A stretch of 44,450 nucleotides of DNA, from the sequence record MZ234012.1. One strand, written 5' to 3'. The notes under the pieces are model-generated. The model saw only the letters and a program-made list of their open reading frames with translations. It did not search any database and had not been told where the DNA came from. Source of the stretch: Escherichia phage vB_EcoP-101101UKE1. The position numbers were made by a program, and so were the translations under genes. Below are positions 7,586-39,782 of this stretch, piece by piece; position 1 is the first letter of the stretch, and the number at the start of each line of letters is the position of its first letter.

Positions 7586-10118
7586 TTGGAAGAAGGAGGC
7601 AGAAGGTCGTATCCTCGTGATGGATGCGGAAGCTAAAGGACTCCTTGACGCTATCCGATATGGACACCGTGAAGATGTGCATATCATTTGCTGCATGGAT
7701 TTGCTTACTACCGAGGAGTTTCTCTTCTTTGACCCGTATGAGATGCGTGACCCTGAAGCAAGAGAACGCCTGAAGGAATGGGAAGGTCATCAAGACGGAA
7801 CCTTGGTTGATGGTGTTAACTTCCTGAAGCATTGTGAAGCTATTGTGTCACAGAACTTACTAGGGTATGACGGACTTCTCTTTGAGAAAGCATTCCCTGA
7901 TATTTGGAAGGGCTTTAACTATACCGAGAAGCGCGGTAAGGGCAGACTCCGTGCTGACCTGTGTCCGGTGCGAGTCATGGATACGCTGGTGATGAGTCGC
8001 CTGTTAAACCCCGATAGACGCCTTCCTCCGCAAGCATATGCCAAAGGTATGGGTAACGTCGCCCCTCACTCAATTGAGGCGCACGGCATCCGTATAGGCC
8101 GCTATAAACCGGAGAACGAGGACTGGTCTAAACTAACTGACCACATGGTTCACCGTGTACGTGAGGACGTGGCGATTGGTCGTGACTTGTTCCTCTGGCT
8201 CTTTAACGGGGAATGGATGGAGCACAAACGCCGTGGCGTGAATAAACGCACTGGCCTAGGTATTGAGACAGCCTTCCACATGGAGTCCATTGTGGCGCTG
8301 GAGATGAGCCGTCAGGCAGAGCGTGGATTCCGTCTGGATATTGACAAAGCACTAGCGCGATGCGAAGAACTGGACGCTAAGATTGACGAGACAGTCGCAG
8401 CGTTCCGCCCTCACATGCCTATGCGTATCAAGTCTAAGCCTTTTAAACCGGAAGAAAAGAATGAAGTATGCCAACGCGCAAATGAGTATGGAGCTAGCAA
8501 CAATATACCTACTGTCCTTGACCCCTCACACTTTCTTCATGCCGAGAGACGAGGAGATCGCAAGACAGTATGGAGTGTCACTACTAAGTCTGGTGATTGG
8601 TCGGCTAGTGTCAAGAAAGACTTTCCTCACCTTAGAGGAAACCGTAATGACACGCCAAGCATCAAGTGGATTGGCGCTTACTCGCCTGTTACTTTCGAAG
8701 AGATTCCCTTGGGTAACAGGGATACAGTTAAGCAAGTGCTCTATGATTATGGATGGAAAGGTGTTGAATTTAACGATACCGAGCAAGCGCATCTCGATGA
8801 GCACGGAGTGTTACCCAAACCTTGGAGTGGTAAGATAAATGAAAAGTCCCTTACTTTATGGCAAGAGAGAGCCGCACGTGAAGGTAAAACAGTCCCTGAT
8901 TGGTGCTTGGGTATCGCTGCATGGTACATACTCGTATCCCGTCGTGGTCAGATACTCAACCGTGGTGACGTTGAAGCCTTCAACGAGAAGGGAACGTGGC
9001 CCTCGCAGGCTGGTGTACGAAAGTGTCGCGGCCTTGTACCTGTAGCATTCAACAAGGAGCTAGGAATCAATGCGCAGCAATACTACGAGAGGTACGGATG
9101 TTGGCCTACGTCTGACAAAGATGATGGAGAGTGGCGTGTTCCAGCTGTTGCTATTAGCATTGGCACTTCTACGTTCCGTATGCGTCATCGTAACGTGGTC
9201 AATATTCCTGCCCGTGGCTTGTATCCTTTACGTGATTTATTCATAGCAGGGAAAGGCAAGCTAATCCTTGGTTGTGACGGTGCAGGTCTTGAACTGCGTG
9301 TCCTGTCTCACTTCATGAATGACCCTGAGTACCAAGAGATTGTACTGCACGGTGATATTCATACGCATAACCAGATGAAGGCTGGTCTTCCTAAGCGTGA
9401 TATGGCGAAGACGTTTATATACGCCTTCCTCTATGGCTCTGGTATAGCCAACCTTGCAGCAGTATGTGGTGTTACTGAGGAAGAAATGAAGGAAGTTGTG
9501 GCAAGATTCGAGATTGAACTGCCGTCTCTTGCACGTCTTCGTGAGAATGTTATCGCACAAGGTAACAAGTTTGGCTACCTGCAAGCACCTGATGGGCATT
9601 GGGGTCGCATCCGCATGTCTGGTGGTGAACTTAAAGAGCACACGATGCTTAACGTATTACTCCAGATGACTGGCTCTTTGTGTATGAAATATGCATTAGT
9701 CAAGGCATTTGCAGTAATGCGCAAGGAAGGTGTAGCCTTGGATGCTATGGGAAATCCTTGTGGTGTGGCTAACGTGCATGATGAAATCCAGATGGAAGTT
9801 CCTGAAGAGGAGGTCTTGTATCTTAACTACGACCTACCTTTCACCTTAGATGGGTTCGAAACAGAGAAGGCTGCCGTGAAGGCAGTGTTCGATGCAGAGG
9901 AGAAACGTGTTCATGTGGATTCTGAAGGACGTATGTGGTCTGCTGCAAACCTCGTTAGTGTTGATGCTGATGCTGGTGTATTGCATTGCCAGCGCCGTTA
10001 TCACCGTGCAGGTCATATCATTGCCGACGCCATGACTTGGGCAGGGCAGTATCTGAAGATGCGTTGCCCGATGGCAGGCGAATATAAGATTGGCGCAAGT
10101 TGGAAGGAAACACACTGA
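7572..10118 (+). CDS. family A DNA polymerase with 3'-5' exonuclease domain (T7 gp5-like)
   Basis: Exo I motif ILVMDAEAKG, pol motif A DGAGLELRVLSHF, motif B KTFIYAFLYG and motif C VHDEIQ. Start chosen at ATG 7572 (RBS tggag); the track ORF opens at 7539. Confidence 0.92.
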   Translation: MKSIDWKKEAEGRILVMDAEAKGLLDAIRYGHREDVHIICCMDLLTTEEFLFFDPYEMRDPEARERLKEWEGHQDGTLVDGVNFLKHCEAIVSQNLLGYDGLLFEKAFPDIWKGFNYTEKRGKGRLRADLCPVRVMDTLVMSRLLNPDRRLPPQAYAKGMGNVAPHSIEAHGIRIGRYKPENEDWSKLTDHMVHRVREDVAIGRDLFLWLFNGEWMEHKRRGVNKRTGLGIETAFHMESIVALEMSRQAERGFRLDIDKALARCEELDAKIDETVAAFRPHMPMRIKSKPFKPEEKNEVCQRANEYGASNNIPTVLDPSHFLHAERRGDRKTVWSVTTKSGDWSASVKKDFPHLRGNRNDTPSIKWIGAYSPVTFEEIPLGNRDTVKQVLYDYGWKGVEFNDTEQAHLDEHGVLPKPWSGKINEKSLTLWQERAAREGKTVPDWCLGIAAWYILVSRRGQILNRGDVEAFNEKGTWPSQAGVRKCRGLVPVAFNKELGINAQQYYERYGCWPTSDKDDGEWRVPAVAISIGTSTFRMRHRNVVNIPARGLYPLRDLFIAGKGKLILGCDGAGLELRVLSHFMNDPEYQEIVLHGDIHTHNQMKAGLPKRDMAKTFIYAFLYGSGIANLAAVCGVTEEEMKEVVARFEIELPSLARLRENVIAQGNKFGYLQAPDGHWGRIRMSGGELKEHTMLNVLLQMTGSLCMKYALVKAFAVMRKEGVALDAMGNPCGVANVHDEIQMEVPEEEVLYLNYDLPFTLDGFETEKAAVKAVFDAEEKRVHVDSEGRMWSAANLVSVDADAGVLHCQRRYHRAGHIIADAMTWAGQYLKMRCPMAGEYKIGASWKETH

Positions 10119-10234
10119 TGGATAGGCTTGACATTGTTTACCTATTCTTCACTTTCTTTCTTACACTCCTTATGCTTGCTTGTTATGGGAGTATGAGACT
10201 AGATATATCTGATGAAGAAGAGGGTTACGACTAA
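10118..10234 (+). CDS. small hydrophobic peptide (38 aa, MDRLDIVYLFFTFFLTLLMLACYGSMRLDISDEEEGYD)
   Basis: ATG overlaps the polymerase stop (TGATG). One predicted transmembrane helix plus an acidic C-terminus. Confidence 0.3.
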   Translation: MDRLDIVYLFFTFFLTLLMLACYGSMRLDISDEEEGYD

Positions 10235-32337: not shown

Positions 32338-33299
32338 TGAGTTATACTTTCACAGAACATATAGCCAACGGTACGCAAGTAACCTATCCCTTTAGATTTG
32401 CTGGCAGGGATAAAGGCTATCTTCGTGCCTCAGATGTGATAGTGGAATCTCTTCAAGGTAACACTTGGATTGAAGTTACATCTGGCTGGCAACTAACTGG
32501 CACGCACCAGATTACTTTTGATGTAGCACCAGTTGCAGGTTTGAAGTTCCGTATTCGAAGGGAAGTACAAAAGGAGTATCCATACGCTGAGTTTGACCGT
32601 GGTGTTACCTTGGATATGAAGTCTTTAAATGGTTCTTTCATTCATATACTGGAGATTACACAGGAGTTACTTGACGGGTTTTATCCAGAAGGATACTTCA
32701 TTAAACAGAATGTAAGCTGGGGCGGCAATAAGATTACTGATTTGGCTGATGGCACAAATCCTGGAGATGCAGTAAATAAAGGGCAGCTTGATGCCATCGA
32801 CAAGAAGCATACAGATTGGAACGCCAAACAGGACATTGAGATTGCTGGCCTTAAGGCTGGTATGACTTCTGGTATTGCGCACAGAACTGTTCCTTGGTAC
32901 ACGATAGCCAAAGGTGGTGAGATTTCCGTAAAACCACCTTATGAGTTTCAAGATGCACTAGTTTTCCTTAATGGGGTGTTGCAGCACCAAATTGTAGGCG
33001 CATACTCTATAAGCAACAACACTATCACTTTCGCAGAGCCGCTTGTGGCGGGTACAGAGGTGTATGTGCTGATTGGTAGTCGTGTGGCTACATCTGAACC
33101 TAATATTCAGTTAGAGTTGAACTTTGACTTAATAGAAGGCCAACAAGTAGTACAGATTGGCTCTGCATTTAAGTACATTGAGGTCTACCTTGATGGATTA
33201 TTACAACCTAAACTTGCTTACCAGGTAGACGGTGACATTGTTACTTTCTCAGAAAGAGTACCAGAATGCCGGATGACTGCTAAGATTATCACAGCATAA
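32337..33299 (+). CDS. tail fiber-like adaptor protein (T7 gp17 N-terminal-domain-like)
   Basis: ~320 aa, in the gene 17 position before the holin. Too short to be a full fiber, and distal tailspikes are encoded separately at the right end. Confidence 0.6.
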   Translation: MSYTFTEHIANGTQVTYPFRFAGRDKGYLRASDVIVESLQGNTWIEVTSGWQLTGTHQITFDVAPVAGLKFRIRREVQKEYPYAEFDRGVTLDMKSLNGSFIHILEITQELLDGFYPEGYFIKQNVSWGGNKITDLADGTNPGDAVNKGQLDAIDKKHTDWNAKQDIEIAGLKAGMTSGIAHRTVPWYTIAKGGEISVKPPYEFQDALVFLNGVLQHQIVGAYSISNNTITFAEPLVAGTEVYVLIGSRVATSEPNIQLELNFDLIEGQQVVQIGSAFKYIEVYLDGLLQPKLAYQVDGDIVTFSERVPECRMTAKIITA

Positions 33300-33308
33300 G
33301 GAGGTGGG

Positions 33309-33503
33309 ATGATTAACTCCGAACTGGTAGATAGTGGTGTGAAGCTTGCGCCACCTGCACTCGTATCAGGTGGGTACTTCCTCGGTATCAGTTGGGATAA
33401 TTGGGTGTTAATAGCAACATTCATTTATACCGTGTTGCAAATTGGGGACTGGTTTTATAATAAGTTCAAGATTTGGAGGGAGAAGCGTGAGCGTACACAA
33501 TAA
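33309..33503 (+). CDS. class II holin (T7 gp17.5-like)
   Basis: 64 aa. FIYTVLQIGDW resembles T7 gp17.5 IAYTVVQIG. RBS taaggagg. Confidence 0.65.
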   Translation: MINSELVDSGVKLAPPALVSGGYFLGISWDNWVLIATFIYTVLQIGDWFYNKFKIWREKRERTQ

Positions 33504-33786
33504 ACATGCAGCTACAGAGGATGAGGTTGGCATTCTGCATGGTGCTATTACCAAAATCTTCAATAAGAAAGCACAGGCAATACTGGACACTATAGAAGAA
33601 GACCCTGATGCAGCATTACATTTAGTGTCTGGTAAGGATATTGGTGCGATGTGTAAGTGGGTTCTTGATAACGGCATTACCGCCACACCTGCTGCACAGC
33701 AGGAAGAGTCCAAGTTATCTAAGCGCCTCAAGGCTATCCGAGAGGCATCCAGTGGCAAGATTATTCAGTTTACAAAAGAGGAGTGA
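33487..33786 (+). CDS. putative terminase small subunit (assigned by position)
   Basis: GTG start after RBS ggaggg, located between the holin and the HNH/large terminase genes as for T7 gene 18. No motif recognised. Confidence 0.4.
   Translation: MSVHNKHAATEDEVGILHGAITKIFNKKAQAILDTIEEDPDAALHLVSGKDIGAMCKWVLDNGITATPAAQQEESKLSKRLKAIREASSGKIIQFTKEE
33579..33600 (+). promoter_or_regulatory. phage RNAP promoter variant (AATACTGGACACTATAGAAGAA)
   Basis: Core ACTGGACACTATAGAAG is perfect. It lies inside the putative small terminase gene, upstream of the HNH and large terminase genes. Confidence 0.55.
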
Positions 33787-33787
33787 T

Positions 33788-34231
33788 ATGCATAGATGGT
33801 GTGAATCTCAAGGTTATACCATCTTACCTTCTGGTGTCATCCTTTCAAAGGGTGGCACCCCTCTCAAACCATTCAAGGCGGGTAGGGGTTATTTAGCAGT
33901 TAAAATTAAAAATAAAGAAGGTAGATGGCGTAATGTCTATGTTCATCAATTAGTGGCTTATAAGTATTTACCTAAAACTAATAATGAAGTAAACCACAAA
34001 GACGGCGATAAGCACAACAATGATGTTAGCAACTTGGAGTGGGTAACAAGAAGCGAGAATAACTATTTAAAATGCAATGGAAATGATAGGAGTACCTTAA
34101 ATAGCTATTTAGCAAGATTAAAAGATTGCTTCTTGCAAGGTAAGGGTGTAGCAGAAACCGCTAGACTTACTGGTAAAAGTGAACCAAGAGTTTCTTCTCT
34201 CTTTAAGGAGTGGCGAAATGGCAAAGGCTAG
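33788..34231 (+). CDS. HNH homing endonuclease
   Basis: HNH motif VNHKDGDKHNNDVSNLEWVTRSEN. AT-rich compared with its neighbours. Start ATG 33788 with RBS aagaggag; the track ORF opens at 33641. Confidence 0.8.
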   Translation: MHRWCESQGYTILPSGVILSKGGTPLKPFKAGRGYLAVKIKNKEGRWRNVYVHQLVAYKYLPKTNNEVNHKDGDKHNNDVSNLEWVTRSENNYLKCNGNDRSTLNSYLARLKDCFLQGKGVAETARLTGKSEPRVSSLFKEWRNGKG

Positions 34232-36116
34232 AGAATCACAGGCAGAGGCATTAAAGCGGTGGGAAAACCTTAAAGAACTACAAGACACTTTTAAATATAC
34301 AGCGGAAGGTTTGCTTCTCTTTGCAGATACAGTTATTCATAACTTAATTGCAGGCAACCCTCATCTGATTCGTATGCAGGCTGATATCTTGAAGTTCCTA
34401 TTTTACGGACACAAGTACCGCCTCATCGAAGCGCCTCGTGGTATCGCTAAGACAACACTATCAGCAATCTATACGGTATTCCGTATTATTCATGAACCGC
34501 ATAAGCGTATCATGGTTGTGTCCCAAAACGCCAAGCGAGCAGAGGAAATCGCAGGTTGGGTAGTTAAAATCTTCCGTGGCTTAGACTTTCTTGAGTTTAT
34601 GCTGCCGGATATCTACGCTGGGGACCGTGCATCCGTTAAGGCGTTTGAGATTCATTACACCCTACGTGGTAGTGATAAGTCTCCTTCTGTATCCTGTTAC
34701 TCAATCGAAGCAGGTATGCAGGGTGCTCGTGCTGATATTATTCTAGCGGATGACGTAGAGTCGATGCAGAATGCTCGTACGGCAGCGGGCCGTGCCTTGC
34801 TTGAGGAACTGACTAAGGAGTTTGAATCTATCAACCAGTTTGGGGATATCATTTACCTTGGTACACCTCAGAACGTAAACTCTATCTACAACAACCTACC
34901 TGCTCGTGGTTACTCTGTTCGTATCTGGACTGCGCGTTACCCTTCAGTAGAGCAAGAGCAATGTTATGGCGACTTCCTTGCACCTATGATTGTTCAAGAT
35001 ATGAAGGACAACCCAGCACTTCGCTCAGGGTACGGGTTGGATGGTAATAGTGGTGCACCTTGTGCCCCTGAAATGTATGATGATGAAGTCCTGATTGAGA
35101 AGGAAATCTCTCAGGGTGCTGCTAAGTTCCAGCTTCAGTTCATGCTTAACACTCGCATGATGGATGCTGACAGATACCCATTACGCCTGAACAATCTAAT
35201 CTTCACCTCGTTTGGTACAGAGGAAGTCCCTGTGATGCCTACGTGGAGTAATGATTCCATAAACATCATTGGTGATGCACCTAAGTATGGTAACAAGCCT
35301 ACGGATTTCATGTACAGACCTGTAGCTCGCCCATATGAATGGGGCGCTGTCTCCCGCAAGATTATGTATATTGACCCTGCGGGTGGTGGTAAGAACGGAG
35401 ATGAGACGGGTGTAGCCATCGTATTCCTGCACGGCACATTCATTTATGTGTATCAGTGCTTTGGTGTACCTGGCGGATACCGAGAGTCGTCCCTGAATCG
35501 CATTGTGCAAGCCGCAAAGCAGGCGGGTGTTAAAGAGGTATTCATTGAGAAGAACTTTGGTCATGGCGCGTTTGAGGCGGTAATTAAGCCGTACTTTGAA
35601 CGAGAGTGGCCTGTAACTCTGGAAGAGGATTACGCCACCGGACAGAAAGAGTTGCGTATCATTGAGACGCTGGAGCCGCTCATGGCAGCACATAGGCTTA
35701 TCTTCAATGCAGAGATGGTGAAGTCAGACTTTGAGTCGGTACAGCACTATCCGCTTGAACTACGCATGTCCTACAGTCTTTTCAATCAAATGTCGAACAT
35801 AACGATTGAGAAGAACAGCCTCCGGCACGATGACCGCCTAGACGCCCTGTATGGCGCTATACGGCAATTAACTTCTCAGATAGACTATGACGAGGTTACA
35901 CGGATTAATCGCCTCAGAGCGCAGGAGATGCGCGATTACATCCATGCTATGAATACACCTCATTTACGCAGGGCAATGCTATATGGAGATTACGGTACTG
36001 AGCGAAGAGTGACCAACACTTCCGTAGCGATGCAGCAGCGAGTTTACGGGCAGAACTACCGAAATAAATCGGCAAGCAGAAATACACTTTCTGCAAGGAT
36101 TTCAAGGACTTATTAA
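34218..36116 (+). CDS. terminase large subunit (T7 gp19-like)
   Basis: Walker A-like PRGIAKTT and Walker B-like ILADDVE. Probable start ATG 34218 (RBS aaggag); the track ORF opens at 34179. Confidence 0.9.
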   Translation: MAKARESQAEALKRWENLKELQDTFKYTAEGLLLFADTVIHNLIAGNPHLIRMQADILKFLFYGHKYRLIEAPRGIAKTTLSAIYTVFRIIHEPHKRIMVVSQNAKRAEEIAGWVVKIFRGLDFLEFMLPDIYAGDRASVKAFEIHYTLRGSDKSPSVSCYSIEAGMQGARADIILADDVESMQNARTAAGRALLEELTKEFESINQFGDIIYLGTPQNVNSIYNNLPARGYSVRIWTARYPSVEQEQCYGDFLAPMIVQDMKDNPALRSGYGLDGNSGAPCAPEMYDDEVLIEKEISQGAAKFQLQFMLNTRMMDADRYPLRLNNLIFTSFGTEEVPVMPTWSNDSINIIGDAPKYGNKPTDFMYRPVARPYEWGAVSRKIMYIDPAGGGKNGDETGVAIVFLHGTFIYVYQCFGVPGGYRESSLNRIVQAAKQAGVKEVFIEKNFGHGAFEAVIKPYFEREWPVTLEEDYATGQKELRIIETLEPLMAAHRLIFNAEMVKSDFESVQHYPLELRMSYSLFNQMSNITIEKNSLRHDDRLDALYGAIRQLTSQIDYDEVTRINRLRAQEMRDYIHAMNTPHLRRAMLYGDYGTERRVTNTSVAMQQRVYGQNYRNKSASRNTLSARISRTY

Positions 36117-36136
36117 TTACTGGACACTATAGAAGG
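36115..36136 (+). promoter_or_regulatory. phage RNAP promoter (AATTACTGGACACTATAGAAGG)
   Basis: Consensus match, overlapping the terminase stop codon. Confidence 0.75.
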
Positions 36137-36272
36137 AAGGCCCAGATAATAAGAGAAAATAATAGGTAATATATAGGTTAACCTAGGTTATATAGGTATG
36201 CCTTAGTATGGGTGTACTCTGTACACCCTATTCCTTACTACCTTACTATATTTACATAATAGGAGAGAGACA

Positions 36273-36551
36273 ATGGCTAATGATTATAGTAGTCAACCAT
36301 TAACAGGTAAGTCTAAGAGAAAGCAGGTACAACCTGTAAGTGAAGCACTAATGCTTCCGGTAATCTCAAAAGAGGAAGCTAGTAAGAAAATCAATGTTAT
36401 TAATGATGCCACCAAATCAGGTAAACAGAAAGGGGCCATGGTGTGCCTTGAAGTGGAAGATGGCGTATTGAAGATTGCTATCGCGGTTGATGGCAAAGAA
36501 GATTCAGAGTGGAAGTTAGTGACAGTGGAACCAACTGTTACCCCAGTTTAA
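36273..36551 (+). CDS. small protein, paralog 1 (92 aa)
   Basis: RBS ggagagag. Shares SGKQKGAMV...IAVA with the next ORF. Confidence 0.5.
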   Translation: MANDYSSQPLTGKSKRKQVQPVSEALMLPVISKEEASKKINVINDATKSGKQKGAMVCLEVEDGVLKIAIAVDGKEDSEWKLVTVEPTVTPV

Positions 36552-36569
36552 GAGAAGGAGGAAGATTAC

Positions 36570-36863
36570 ATGGCTAAATATGGTACTACAGGTTCTGTTA
36601 CTGGTCAGGCTTTTCGAGTAAAAGCAGTACAAACTATTGCAACGGCAATCCCGATGCCTGTTGTTAAAGAAGCAGACCTTAAGGATAAAGATCACCCTAT
36701 CAACATCAAACACCTGTCAGGTAAGCAGAAAGGTGCAATGGTTGCTGTTGAGAGAGGTGACACAACCATGCATATTGCTGTTGCACGTGGTAGTGAACCA
36801 ACAGACTCTTGGGATGTAACTGGTATGGAATCGTCAGCCATTACTCTAGCAGGTGGAGAATAA
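36570..36863 (+). CDS. small protein, paralog 2 (97 aa)
   Basis: RBS gaaggagg. Shares the SGKQKGAMVAVE...IAVA core with 36273..36551. Confidence 0.5.
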   Translation: MAKYGTTGSVTGQAFRVKAVQTIATAIPMPVVKEADLKDKDHPINIKHLSGKQKGAMVAVERGDTTMHIAVARGSEPTDSWDVTGMESSAITLAGGE

Positions 36864-37207
36864 TGCTTAACAAATACTTCAAGCGCCGTGAGTTCGCTTG
36901 CCGTTGTGGGTGCGGTACATCCACTGTTGATGCTGAATTACTACAGGTAGTCACAGATGTGCGTGAGCACTTTGGTTCTCCTGTAGTTATCACTTCTGGG
37001 CACCGCTGTGCTAAGCACAATGCTAATGTAGGAGGAGCTAAGAACTCCATGCATCTTACTGGTAAGGCTGCTGACATTAAGGTACGAGGCATCTTACCTT
37101 CTGATGTACATAAGTATCTTACTGATAAGTACCAAGGCAAATATGGGATTGGTAAGTATAACTCCTTTACTCATATTGATGTACGTGACTGGTGTGCACG
37201 ATGGTAG
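36863..37207 (+). CDS. endolysin, peptidase M15-type (L-alanyl-D-glutamate peptidase)
   Basis: Motif SGHRCAKHNANVGGAKNSMHLTGKAADI (zinc-binding H...D...H of M15 peptidases). TAATG-coupled start at 36863. Confidence 0.85.
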   Translation: MLNKYFKRREFACRCGCGTSTVDAELLQVVTDVREHFGSPVVITSGHRCAKHNANVGGAKNSMHLTGKAADIKVRGILPSDVHKYLTDKYQGKYGIGKYNSFTHIDVRDWCARW

Positions 37208-37315
37208 GTTGTGTTGCATGGTGTGAACGCATGGTTGCTAAGGCTTCAGAGGAAGGCAACTATGAAGATTGGCAGAACTACTCAACTTTATTAGCTCAAT
37301 GGAAAGGGAGATGCA

Positions 37316-37465
37316 ATGAAAAAGCTGTTCAAATCTAAGAAGGTTGTAGGTGCACTAGTTGCATTGGCAATTGCTCTTGTTTCTGTAGGTCTTGGTGTAG
37401 ACCTTGGCTCTGGCACGGAATCCTCTGTGACAGATGTGGTCTGCCAAGTGATCACCTGTGAATAA
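37316..37465 (+). CDS. small membrane protein (49 aa), possible holin or antiholin
   Basis: MKKLFKSKKVVGALVALAIALVSVGLGV has one TM helix. RBS gggag 6 nt upstream. Lies between the endolysin and the spanins. Confidence 0.35.
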   Translation: MKKLFKSKKVVGALVALAIALVSVGLGVDLGSGTESSVTDVVCQVITCE

Positions 37466-37679
37466 GTTTCTAGAAGTTCTGGCAGGTCTTATTGGCCTGC
37501 TTGTCTCTGCTAAGAAGAAACAAGAAGAGAAGGAGGCACAAAGTGAAGCGAATCATGTTAGTGACAACCCTTCTGATTGGTTCGCTGACCACTTCCGGGT
37601 GTCAGCAGGCGTTACCAGAGAAAGCAATGGTGAAACCTCTGAGGCCGACGCTGACGGAAGTTTACGAGGTAGACGATAA
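37458..37679 (+). CDS. putative i-spanin (Rz-like), unusually short
   Basis: N-terminal TM segment FLEVLAGLIGLLVSA. Contains the o-spanin start in the +1 frame. Confidence 0.35.
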   Translation: MNKFLEVLAGLIGLLVSAKKKQEEKEAQSEANHVSDNPSDWFADHFRVSAGVTRESNGETSEADADGSLRGRR

Positions 37680-37752
37680 GGTCTGCTTTAGTAAGCCTGA
37701 CGCTACAAAATTAGGTTTGTATATTCTTTCGCTAGAACGCGGATATAATTAA
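37555..37752 (+). CDS. putative o-spanin (Rz1-like outer-membrane lipoprotein)
   Basis: Lipoprotein signal MLVTTLLIGSLTTSGC with a lipobox Cys, then a Pro-containing mature region. Overlaps the i-spanin ORF out of frame. Confidence 0.55.
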   Translation: MLVTTLLIGSLTTSGCQQALPEKAMVKPLRPTLTEVYEVDDKVCFSKPDATKLGLYILSLERGYN

Positions 37753-37781
37753 TACATAGCTTTATGTATCAGTGTCTTACG

Positions 37782-37805
37782 ATTTACTGGACACTATAGA
37801 AGAGG
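37782..37805 (+). promoter_or_regulatory. phage RNAP promoter upstream of the tailspike genes (ATTTACTGGACACTATAGAAGAGG)
   Basis: Exact consensus. Confidence 0.8.
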
Positions 37806-37883
37806 TAAGATAGCGCCGTTCTTTTGAGCGGCCTATTACTAGCCAATCTTCATAGGGAGGGTTGGAAAGTAATAGGAGATAGC

Positions 37884-39782
37884 ATGGCTAAATTAACCAA
37901 ACCTAATACTGAAGGAATCTTGCATAAAGGACAATCTTTGTATGAGTACCTTGATGCGAGAGTTTTAACATCAAAGCCGTTTGGTGCTGTAGGTGACGCC
38001 GCTACTGATGATACGGAGGTTATAGCTGCTTCATTAAACTCTCAGAAAGCTGTCACAATCTCAGACGGTGTATTCTCTAGCTCTGGTATTAATAGTAATT
38101 ACTGTAACTTAGACGGTAGAGGTAGTGGGGTGCTAAGTCACCGTTCCAGTACAGGTAACTACTTAGTATTTAACAATCCACGTACAGGTCGCTTAAGTAA
38201 TATTACGGTAGAAAGTAATAAGGAGACTGATACAACTCAGGGACAGCAGGTATCTCTTGCGGGTGGAAGTGATGTTACTGTAAGTGACGTTAACTTCTCA
38301 AACGTTAAAGGTACTGGTTTCAGTTTAATCGCATACCCTAATGATGCGCCACCTGATGGACTTATGATTAAAGGCATTCGAGGTAGCTATTCCGGCTATG
38401 CTACTAATAAGGCAGCCGGATGCGTACTTGCTGACTCATCAGTTAACTCCCTCATAGATAACGTCATTGCTAAGAACTACCCTCAGTTCGGAGCAGTAGA
38501 GTTGAAAGGTACAGCCAGTTACAACATAGTCAGTAATGTTATAGGGACAGATTGCCAGCATGTAACTTACAACGGCACTGAAGGGCCAATAGCTCCTTCT
38601 AATAACCTTATCAAGGGGGTGATGGCTAATAACCCTAAGTATGCAGCGGTTGTTGCAGGCAAAGGAAGTACGAACTTGATCTCAGACGTGCTCGTAGGTT
38701 ACTCAACTTCTGATGCTAGGCAGGTTCATGGTGTTACCGTAGAAGGATCTGATAACGTCATAAATAATGTGCTTATGTCAGGATGTGATGGTACTAACTC
38801 TTTAGGACAAAGGCAGACTGCTACAATTGCACGCTTTATAGGTACAGCTAATAACAACTATGCGTCTGTATTTCCTAGCTACAGTGCTACAGGTGTTATT
38901 ACTTTCGAATCCGGCTCTACCCGTAACTTCGTAGAGGTAAAGCACCCTGGCAGGAGAAACGACCTTCTCAGTTCTGCTAGTACTATTGACGGTGCAGCTA
39001 CTATTGACGGCACTAATAATAGTAACGTAGTGCACGCACCTGCCTTAGGGCAGTACATAGGTAGTATGTCAGGTAGGTTCGAATGGCGGATTAAGTCCAT
39101 GTCACTCCCTTCAGGCGTTCTTACTTCTGCTGATAAGTACAGAATGCTTGGGGATGGTGCTGTATCATTAGCTTTAGGTGGGGGTACTTCTTCTCAAGTT
39201 CGCCTATTTACTTCTGATGGTACTTCTCGGACAGTGTCCCTCACCAACGGTAACGTGCGTCTTTCTACCAGTAGCACAGGCTATTTGCAGTTAGGTACTG
39301 ATGCAATGACCCCAGATAGTACTGGTACATACGCATTAGGTTCCGCCAGTCGAGCATGGTCTGGCGGTTTTACTCAAGCAGCATTCACTGTTACATCAGA
39401 TGCTCGGTGTAAAACAGAACCTCTTACTATCTCAGATGCCTTACTGGATGCTTGGTCTGAAGTTGACTTTGTGCAGTTTCAGTATTTGGATCGTGTTGAG
39501 GAGAAGGGTGCAGACTCAGCTAGATGGCACTTCGGTATCATCGCTCAGCGAGCTAAGGAGTCTTTCGAACGTCACGGTATAGATGCACATCGCTATGGCT
39601 TCTTGTGCTTCGACAGTTGGGATGATGTATACGAGGAAGATGCCAATGGCTCTCGTAAACTGATTACACCAGCAGGTTCCCGCTACGGTATTCGTTACGA
39701 GGAAGTGCTGATATTAGAGGCTGCGTTGATGCGGCGGACTATTAAGCGTATGCAGGAAGCACTAGCTTCCCTGCCTAAGTAA
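37884..39782 (+). CDS. tailspike 1: beta-helix depolymerase with C-terminal intramolecular chaperone (peptidase S74) domain
   Basis: N-terminal FGAVGDAATDDTEVIAA is pectate-lyase-like. C-terminal SDARCKTEP...WHFGIIAQRAKESFERHGIDAHRYGFLCFDSWDD matches the auto-cleaving chaperone domain of endosialidases, K5 lyase and the T5 L-shaped fiber. Start ATG 37884. Confidence 0.85.
   Translation: MAKLTKPNTEGILHKGQSLYEYLDARVLTSKPFGAVGDAATDDTEVIAASLNSQKAVTISDGVFSSSGINSNYCNLDGRGSGVLSHRSSTGNYLVFNNPRTGRLSNITVESNKETDTTQGQQVSLAGGSDVTVSDVNFSNVKGTGFSLIAYPNDAPPDGLMIKGIRGSYSGYATNKAAGCVLADSSVNSLIDNVIAKNYPQFGAVELKGTASYNIVSNVIGTDCQHVTYNGTEGPIAPSNNLIKGVMANNPKYAAVVAGKGSTNLISDVLVGYSTSDARQVHGVTVEGSDNVINNVLMSGCDGTNSLGQRQTATIARFIGTANNNYASVFPSYSATGVITFESGSTRNFVEVKHPGRRNDLLSSASTIDGAATIDGTNNSNVVHAPALGQYIGSMSGRFEWRIKSMSLPSGVLTSADKYRMLGDGAVSLALGGGTSSQVRLFTSDGTSRTVSLTNGNVRLSTSSTGYLQLGTDAMTPDSTGTYALGSASRAWSGGFTQAAFTVTSDARCKTEPLTISDALLDAWSEVDFVQFQYLDRVEEKGADSARWHFGIIAQRAKESFERHGIDAHRYGFLCFDSWDDVYEEDANGSRKLITPAGSRYGIRYEEVLILEAALMRRTIKRMQEALASLPK
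39406..39779 (+). other. intramolecular chaperone / peptidase S74 auto-processing domain within tailspike 1
   Basis: Begins at the conserved Ser of the SDARxK motif. Predicted self-cleavage immediately before this Ser. Confidence 0.7.

Follow-up and report, generated by a model that had tools for sequence, protein, structure and literature searches.

The lysis genes of Escherichia phage vB_EcoP-101101UKE1 (record MZ234012.1) lie at two sites between positions 33,309 and 37,752 of the window, by which we mean the whole stretch of 44,450 nucleotides (nt) analyzed here, with all coordinates given on the plus strand. A holin gene of the T7 gp17.5 family sits between the tail-fiber adaptor gene and terS, which encodes the small terminase subunit, while an endolysin gene and four tightly packed small genes, referred to here as p48, p49, p73, and the gene for a lipoprotein of 69 amino acids (aa), follow the large terminase gene terL. 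A megablast search with 33200–37900 as query matched 139 phage records, of which Escherichia phage vB-Eco-KMB47 was closest (99.9% identity, 100% query coverage), followed by AAPEc6, VEc3, LL11, and K1-5 at 95–97%; all five belong to Vectrevirus (Autographiviridae, Molineuxvirinae), that is, to the SP6 group and within it to the K1-5/K1E branch. Gene order in the window is that of annotated relatives: tail-fiber-like adaptor, holin, terS, terL, two small paralogs, endolysin, small open reading frames (ORFs), and tailspike. The split lysis system that a first-pass annotation, made by a model from the sequence alone, had pointed out is therefore real and is the norm of the group, as the same two-site layout is found in K1-5, LL11, SP6, KMB47, and phD2B, and a similar one in T7, where the holin gene also lies between the tail fiber gene and terS and the spanin genes follow terS. 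The locus is the ordinary late lysis apparatus of a K1-5/SP6-type podophage, encoded at two sites as in the wider T7 supergroup, and both its sequence and its layout are already known from GenBank and SpaninDB.

The 64-aa product of 33309–33503 has one hydrophobic segment and a basic C-terminus, and matched Pfam Phage_holin_2_2 (PF10746; E 1.5e-27, 95.5 bits, curated cut-off 25.4) and the holin family phrog_920 (E 5.8e-28). Its homologs are labeled holin in KMB47, LL11, and K1-5, and we regard it, by family match, as a predicted gp17.5-family holin, in agreement with the first-pass annotation. The endolysin (36863–37207, 114 aa), also recognized there as an M15 enzyme, is a zinc peptidase that matched Peptidase_M15_3 (PF08291; E 4.9e-33, 113.9 bits, cut-off 23.2) and phrog_894 endolysin (E 2e-44), with the zinc-ligand motifs H-x6-D (HLTGKAAD) and a later His (THID) present in its translation. 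This enzyme has no hydrophobic N-terminus (no hydropathy window reaches 1.6) and neither a signal peptide nor a signal-arrest-release (SAR) domain; therefore, a hole-forming holin would be required for its exit from the cytoplasm.

A late promoter of the phage RNA polymerase (36119–36137) begins three nt past the terL stop (36116), with two mismatches to the consensus ACTGGACACTATAGAAGAG, which was derived from the window itself and has nine sites there versus 0.01 expected by chance. The next phage promoter, an exact match to the consensus at 37786–37804, lies ahead of the tailspike gene. Given that these two promoters flank them, the endolysin gene and the four small genes close one late unit, and the position of the first promoter parallels that of phiOR ahead of gene 19.5 in T7. 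Within this unit, neighboring genes share nucleotides: p48 with the endolysin stop, p49 with the end of p48, and the GTG start of p73 with the p49 stop (GTGAATAA). The four genes p48, p49, p73, and the lipoprotein gene are translationally coupled. The unit also contains, ahead of its first gene and approximately 75 nt 3' of the promoter, a GC-rich 8-bp stem-loop (GGGTGTAC TCT GTACACCC, 36210–36228), which may be an RNA processing or stabilizing element.

Selection on these genes was assessed with 37 loci encoding endolysin relatives taken from IMG/VR, of which 24 distinct SP6-like sequences, the window included, were aligned, and ratios of nonsynonymous to synonymous substitution rates (dN/dS; Nei-Gojobori) were calculated in all three frames of each zone. 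The endolysin gene had a dN/dS of 0.12. For p48, the ratio was 0.14 in its own frame versus 1.2 and 1.3 in the others, and for p49, 0.18 versus 1.4 and 2.4. The 77 nt of p73 that overlap no other gene had a dN/dS of 0.25, compared with 1.6 and 3.3 for the alternative frames. Stop codons and indels were absent from this part in all 24 sequences, and its nucleotide diversity by codon position was 0.22/0.06/0.34, which is the pattern of a coding frame. Where p73 overlaps the lipoprotein signal peptide, its frame was the constrained one (0.13 versus 0.80 in the lipoprotein frame), and over the mature lipoprotein, the p73 frame reached 0.94 and acquired premature stops, while the lipoprotein frame remained at 0.52. 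The part belonging to the lipoprotein alone had a dN/dS of 0.09 versus 1.2 and 12.7. Given the low own-frame dN/dS in every small ORF, all four are genes. Functional p73 consists of its first 48 residues (codons 1–48, 37458–37601), and its tail (37602–37679) is read-through over the lipoprotein gene.

The first of the four, p48 (37201–37338), encodes a conserved small soluble protein with a CxxWC motif and occupies what had been taken for a gap of approximately 108 nt between the endolysin gene and the 49-aa ORF. Its probable start is the ATG at 37201 (45 aa), with the GTG at 37192 (48 aa) as the other candidate. It matched phrog_1312 (E 4e-18), and homologs lie 3' of the endolysin gene in SP6 (gene 55), Koku, Nufs112, and JSF38; the gene is annotated in SP6 and Koku and unannotated in KMB47, K1-5, and LL11. 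At one locus (L022 2787–3104), a one-base difference joins p48-like and p49-like frames into a single 105-aa ORF, either by sequencing error or as a natural fusion, and in Proteus phage PM116 (L045 839–1163) the two are separate overlapping genes.

The last of the four (37543–37752) encodes the lipoprotein, which is of the outer-membrane spanin (o-spanin) type. The better start is the GTG at 37543, six nt past a strong Shine-Dalgarno sequence read within p73 (AAGGAGG, 37530–37536) that is identical to the one SpaninDB gives for the K1-5 and K1E lipoproteins. This start yields MKRIMLVTTLLIGSLTTSG|C with a basic n-region and the 69-aa form also used by K1-5, LL11, and SpaninDB, so we prefer it over the ATG at 37555 of the first-pass annotation, with which the basic n-region is lost. 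The lipoprotein signal, which that annotation had singled out for checking, is present: MKRIMLVTTLLIGSLTTSG|C fits a PROSITE-type rule coded for this analysis, by which no other ORF of the window has a credible lipobox. The lipobox Cys is invariant in all relatives, and the residue at +2 is Q, S, G, A, V, T, or L. The sorting rule for Asp at +2 is established Escherichia coli Lol biology, and given that Asp never occurs there in this family, its members conform to outer-membrane sorting. The mature protein (50 aa) has a Pro-rich variable linker followed by a conserved C-terminal domain with one Cys; it matched phrog_8971, an Rz-like spanin family (E 7e-38), and belongs to the K1-5 o-spanin family of SpaninDB. 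A PDB sequence search with it gave no match, and Pfam and NCBIfam returned nothing for p48, p49, p73, or the lipoprotein. The gene begins 336 nt past the endolysin stop and 85 nt into p73, lies in its +1 frame, shares 137 nt with it, and runs 73 nt past its stop. Overlapping genes near the endolysin, the spanin-type architecture, were found here and in every relative examined, and no other lipoprotein or Rz-like ORF was found in the window.

The 73-aa ORF p73 (37458–37679) is present as first annotated and matched phrog_9219 (E 5e-32). Its core comprises a weakly hydrophobic or amphipathic N-terminal helix with basic residues directly after it, a charged helix, and a P-x-x-W-F-x-x-H-F motif. 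An exhaustive hidden Markov model (HMM) search with a p73 profile returned 51 clusters (50% identity), nearly all 58–83 aa long, that share the N-terminal helix, K-x-E-Q-x-x-A-Q-x-E-A-D, P-x-x-W-F-x-x-H-F-(x)-G-V, and a low-complexity tail; many of the helices are plainly amphipathic (e.g., MRAFVELLNRILALLESALRRRE). The remark in the first-pass annotation that its candidate inner-membrane spanin (i-spanin) is unusually short and the architecture non-canonical thus describes the whole family, consistent with the SpaninDB flags 'Too small?' and 'Too short'. AlphaFold2 with the family alignment gave helices at 3–28 and 38–45 and left the rest disordered, at low confidence (mean pLDDT 59). Three other accounts of p73 were rejected. 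A cleavable Sec signal at its N-terminus (VSA|KKK) would have a charged residue in its h-region and three Lys directly after the putative site, and the A-x-A-like site is not conserved across the family. The reading as a shortened T7 gp18.5, with the lipoprotein as a relative of gp18.7, was dropped because no similarity was found. Finally, the 95-aa family member P0106, which looked like a fusion of a p49-like transmembrane domain (TMD) with a p73-like domain, is a gene-call artifact, as the DNA of locus L057 holds two overlapping genes.

The 49-aa protein p49 (37316–37465), preceded by GGGAG 5 nt upstream of its start, matched phrog_4712, named 'holin' (E 3e-27), and is a type II protein with a single TMD, the latter already noted in the first-pass annotation. 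It begins with MKKLFKSKK (five Lys in the first nine residues), continues with 19 hydrophobic residues free of charge (Kyte-Doolittle 19-window 2.64; hydropathy scales here and below are the standard tables), and ends in an acidic 21-aa tail, VVCQVITCE at its end. By its charges, p49 is predicted to have the basic N-terminus inside and the acidic CxxxxC tail outside. Its labels conflict, being 'holin' in RefSeq and PHROGs and i-spanin in the LL11 record (MH729818), the SP6 record (AY288927.2), and SpaninDB, whose curators noted a good TMHMM hit, 'Too small?', approximately 20 periplasmic residues, and a total of 71, 'Too short' (Kongari et al., 2018; PMC6139136).

Two sets of proteins relate p49 to holins. 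The first is gp19.5 of T7, which resembles p49 in its length of 49 aa, its basic N-terminal end, its single TMD, and the CxxxxC at its C-terminus (VVCSILTCSD in T7), and in having its gene after terL and behind a late promoter (phiOR). The two proteins matched in BLASTP (E 2e-4), their families aligned in hhalign with 62% probability (E 7e-5, versus approximately 1% for the reversed control), the proteins were reciprocal best HMM hits, and the p49 family is the second-best PHROG of gp19.5 (E 0.03); word-index searches recovered only close relatives with p49 and only six near-identical sequences with gp19.5. Homology of p49 and gp19.5 is probable on these comparisons but not proven. In experimental evolution of T7, gp19.5 A24D compensated deletion of the holin gene 17.5, and E38G appeared once lysin function had been lost; the authors proposed that gp19.5 is a second holin (PMC2680503). 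A separate study of a holin-deletion line again saw E38G, together with raised 19.5 mRNA (PMC8365609).

The second set comprises 64–69-aa proteins with two TMDs, encoded at the p49 position directly upstream of a p73-like gene in distant cassettes (numbered L057 to L065 among our loci). These align with p49 over its N-terminal two thirds, that is, the basic stretch, the first TMD, and the D-L-G loop, and differ in having a second TMD, a basic C-terminal tail, and no Cys, whereas p49 ends in its periplasmic CxxxxC tail. Among PHROGs, they aligned in register with the p49 family (E 0.011, 0.065, and 4.6e-4), the two families aligned in hhalign with 64.5% probability over 41 columns (E 6e-5, versus 1–2.5% for reversed controls), and the HMM of the two-TMD family ranked p49 first of 871 window ORFs (E 5.6e-5; next 0.95). 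The two-TMD proteins also match the PHROG holin families 34682, 297, and 962, albeit weakly. On these comparisons, p49 appears to be related to holin-type proteins, with one TMD only. The first-pass annotation had suggested a second holin, a pinholin, or an antiholin. Since p49 resembles gp19.5, a genetically implicated secondary holin, a role as second holin or antiholin is plausible, while a pure pinholin would be unlikely to suffice because the endolysin has neither a signal nor a SAR domain.

The small genes travel together well beyond the SP6 group. A tblastn search with the lipoprotein matched 156 phage records, with hosts including Escherichia, Klebsiella, Salmonella, Proteus, Edwardsiella, Pectobacterium, Aeromonas, Vibrio, Pantoea, and Erwinia. 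The trio of p49-like gene, p73-like gene, and lipoprotein gene in the +1 frame is found in SP6, Proteus phage PM116, Klebsiella phage Koku, Vibrio phage JSF38, Erwinia phage VL73, Pantoea phage Nufs112, and Pectobacterium phage PP99, and is kept even with a different type of endolysin. In PP99, VL73, Nufs112, and JSF38, the p73 ATG abuts or overlaps the p49 stop. The distant cassettes L057–L064, reached via one distant p73 member, have the order endolysin, two-TMD protein, p73-like protein (ATGA-coupled), and lipoprotein (+1 frame), with the last two confirmed as phrog_9219 (E 9e-13) and phrog_8971 (E 3e-15). In L065, the same two-TMD protein is followed by a 170-aa gene that is Rz-like by sequence features, with an embedded Rz1-like lipoprotein ORF. 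From these orders, the p73/lipoprotein pair appears to hold an Rz/Rz1-like place and p49 the place of the two-TMD, holin-like protein. No locus was found in IMG/VR for the single distant p73 members P0095 and P0112. Separately, Lelliottia phage phD2B has an unannotated 38-aa ORF (L023 2385–2501; one genome) that ends at the endolysin start and carries a lipoprotein signal (MRRLVLAIVLCFSLSS|C) ahead of a mature part of 22 aa.

Taken together, these comparisons lead us to favor the following sequence of events, an even call in our judgment when taken as a whole package. The gp17.5-type holin would open the inner membrane, and the signal-less M15 endolysin would then escape and cut the peptidoglycan. 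The p73/lipoprotein pair, a counterpart of Rz/Rz1 by gene order and overlap, would remove the outer membrane, and p49 would tune the timing of membrane permeabilization as a second holin or antiholin, making it the equivalent of gp19.5 and not an i-spanin.

Several observations weigh against this assignment of roles, and the weakest step is that p73 has no convincing anchor or export signal with which to meet its periplasmic partner. The longest uncharged run in p73 is 12 residues (E6 to K19; Kyte-Doolittle 19-window 1.25), compared with 23 in lambda Rz, 19 in T7 gp18.5, and 19 in p49, and among 49 family members the median run is 11, with only 3/49 reaching 17. Nor does p73 have any Cys. By hydropathy rules, it lacks the N-terminal N-in/C-out transmembrane anchor of an i-spanin, and it also lacks the long helical periplasmic domain with a constrained C-terminal interaction region. 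Because the family usually has no real transmembrane segment, p73 is, on sequence criteria, not a canonical i-spanin, and its existence as an N-in/C-out anchored periplasmic protein is doubtful, although this particular p73 could have a short atypical membrane anchor. A cytoplasmic p73 would be unable to reach the lipoprotein before the holin fires. Thus, of the overlapping i-/o-spanin pair proposed in the first-pass annotation, the lipoprotein and the +1 overlap stand, while the candidate i-spanin lacks, by hydropathy, the membrane anchor that defines such a protein. The part given to p49 also meets difficulties. The reciprocal HMM hits between p49 and gp19.5 are weak, with E 0.2 in the search of 871 window ORFs and E 0.018 in that of 77 T7 ORFs, and Pfam DUF5465 (PF17553), which matched T7 gp19.5 as a control (E 6.5e-11), had no match to p49 or seven homologs at E<=10. 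In the distant cassettes, another holin-like gene lies upstream of the endolysin gene, and the role of holin may therefore not fall to the two-TMD protein: L057 (430–600), L058 (152–406), and L064 (1254–1526) encode there an extra small protein with one TMD and a coiled-coil-like segment, and these phages may have a separate primary holin besides the two-TMD protein. Moreover, phD2B has neither p73 nor the lipoprotein and encodes only a 45-aa p49-like protein that has lost both Cys, as might be expected if the tail of p49 were linked to the p73/lipoprotein module. Expert curation (SpaninDB and the GenBank records of SP6 and LL11) names p49 the i-spanin, and in the literature retrieved on SP6-like phages we found no experiment on these small proteins.

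The curators' model, in which p49 is a minimal 'separated' i-spanin that pairs with the lipoprotein through C-terminal segments, possibly with disulfides, and so bridges the periplasm, and p73 is an accessory protein with an unrelated or regulatory function, is the strongest competitor, although in our view an unlikely one. With its five Lys, 19-residue stretch, and acidic tail, p49 has the N-in/C-out anchor of an i-spanin and is the only protein here that combines a robust anchor of this kind with conserved periplasmic Cys. The curators of SpaninDB, SP6 (AY288927.2), and LL11 all chose it, a 47-aa separated i-spanin was likewise assigned in ICP3_2007_A (VP4 i-spanin family of SpaninDB), and the joint loss of the lipoprotein and of both p49 Cys in phD2B fits such pairing. 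On the other hand, the periplasmic tail is only approximately 21 residues long, and together with the 50 residues of the lipoprotein it gives 71, which the curators judged 'Too short', although the shortest pair that they accepted has 62. T7 has the probable homolog gp19.5 in addition to full-length Rz/Rz1, and since that pair is complete, gp19.5 is not needed as an i-spanin. In L057–L064, the protein at the p49 position is a Cys-less two-TMD protein, yet the lipoprotein keeps its internal Cys, and the model leaves the constant nesting of p73 with the lipoprotein gene unexplained. Co-occurrence of Cys had also been considered by itself as a sign of p49-lipoprotein pairing, and was weakened by these same two-TMD cassettes. 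SpaninDB is moreover inconsistent, filing the 49-aa protein as a 'separated' i-spanin in K1-5, K1E, and SP6 and the p73 homolog of UAB_Phi78 (69 aa) as an 'overlapped' one (Kongari et al., 2018; PMC6139136).

Somewhat less probable again is a non-canonical partnership, either a three-part unit of p49, p73, and lipoprotein, or a cytoplasmic, amphipathic p73 that exits via holin lesions to engage the lipoprotein and a membrane. From genus to genus the trio stays together, with its genes translationally coupled, the p73 family has no conserved transmembrane segment but keeps its amphipathic helix and the aromatic motif P-x-x-W-F-x-x-H-F, and the endolysin likewise depends on large holin holes. 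However, this account is purely inferential, gene clustering alone does not amount to physical interaction, and some p73-family members, including this one, could insert as short anchors. We know of no precedent for such a non-canonical partnership. Taken further, and with similarly low probability, the SP6/K1-5 group and many other phages with the p73/lipoprotein pair would have no membrane-anchored i-spanin at all, and the amphipathic p73 core of approximately 48 aa would breach the outer membrane with the lipoprotein, p73 either leaving via holin lesions or depending for a partner in the membrane on its holin-like neighbor, be it p49 or the two-TMD protein. If true, this would be a third outer-membrane design besides two-component and unimolecular spanins.

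It is very improbable that the lipoprotein is a non-lytic, surface-modifying or superinfection-exclusion protein to which p73 is unrelated. Phage lipoproteins of such kind exist, such as T5 Llp and Cor, but in every relative the gene considered here comes right behind the endolysin, whichever type of endolysin is encoded (in L057–L064 it follows the two-TMD holin-like protein, in the Rz/Rz1-like place of L065), it is nested in the +1 frame as in overlapped spanins (T5, SpaninDB) or the fully embedded T7 gp18.7, and the window holds no other spanin candidate. Weakest of all is the notion that p73 is a chance open frame arising from the overlapping lipoprotein gene and the spacer, for although its last 25 codons are unconstrained, its length varies (61–73 aa), and it is unannotated in K1-5 and LL11, the selection on its unique 77 nt and over the lipoprotein signal peptide, the codon-position pattern, the shared motif in 51 clusters, and the ATG starts coupled to an upstream stop in distant members have effectively refuted it, as far as sequence analysis reaches.

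Compared with known systems, the favored assignment of p73 and the lipoprotein to the outer membrane and of p49 to timing has partial parallels. K1-5, K1E, SP6, and UAB_Phi78 (SpaninDB) have the same genes in the same order; the 49-, 73-, and 69-aa proteins of K1-5 are 98–100% identical to those of the window, and we found no material difference in sequence from the K1-5 group. T7 has the holin 17.5, the Rz/Rz1-type spanins 18.5/18.7, and the 49-aa candidate second holin 19.5, and matches the window in holin family and in the position of the holin gene after the tail fiber gene. It differs in the genes between terS and terL, which in T7 encode a 143-aa i-spanin and, embedded in it, the o-spanin, where the window has an HNH gene and no Rz-like gene, and neither the p73 family nor the lipoprotein is similar to gp18.5 or gp18.7. 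The T7 endolysin is the gp3.5 amidase, encoded far upstream, whereas the M15 peptidase adjoins the small genes in this phage. Lambda Rz/Rz1 likewise has an outer-membrane lipoprotein gene in the +1 frame of a preceding small gene near the endolysin gene. However, Rz (153 aa) has a 23-residue uncharged anchor and approximately 130 periplasmic coiled-coil residues, compared with the 12-residue stretch of p73 followed by approximately 30 constrained residues without coiled coil or Cys, and Rz1 is fully embedded, whereas the lipoprotein gene here extends 73 nt beyond the p73 stop. In P2, K (endolysin) is followed by lysA, lysB, and lysC, that is, by a small timing membrane protein and then an overlapped i-/o-spanin pair, in which LysB, unlike p73, is a full-length i-spanin.

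On present evidence, the locus is not a new kind of system, and as a genome feature it is of little importance; what value remains is of a practical kind. Therapy and engineering work makes use of K1-5/SP6-type phages, yet their four small genes are annotated contradictorily: the same protein is a holin, an i-spanin, or hypothetical depending on the record, the lipoprotein gene is missing or mislabeled in some, and p48 and p73 are often unannotated. In the SP6 record AY288927.2, for example, a p73-frame ORF of 65 aa from an internal GTG (L042 1137–1334) is labeled 'o-spanin', and the true lipoprotein ORF (L042 1201–1410; MKQIWLAMTLLIGSLTISGC...) is unannotated; KMB47 has p73 annotated and the lipoprotein not. 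Our comparative results give a consistent gene model for the four genes and turn the curators' 'too short' doubt into a testable question, namely which small protein partners the lipoprotein and whether a membrane anchor is needed. The p49-gp19.5 link, if true, would also be of use because gp19.5 is the only 'second holin' of the T7 supergroup with genetic data, to which this family would then be connected. The 48-residue p73 core family, the three-gene module, and the p49-gp19.5 equivalence were not found in the literature retrieved and refine the annotation.

Further features of the window touch lysis only by their position. An HNH homing endonuclease gene (33788–34231; Pfam HNH_3, E 4e-11) lies between terS and terL; it is shared with KMB47 and absent from K1-5 and LL11, in which terS abuts terL, and in phD2B a homing endonuclease splits terL in place of an HNH gene between terS and terL. 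The two small paralogs upstream of the endolysin gene (92 aa, 36273–36551; 97 aa, 36570–36863) both belong to phrog_2725. Their RefSeq name, 'acetyl-CoA acetyltransferase', looks like a propagated mislabel, and a longer homolog in Klebsiella phage Koku is annotated as a Hoc-like head decoration protein. Finally, in the early/middle region, a 38–44-aa ORF on the plus strand (10118–10234) encodes a hydrophobic core together with LMLAC, which resembles a lipobox, so that a lipoprotein or another small membrane protein may be made from it.

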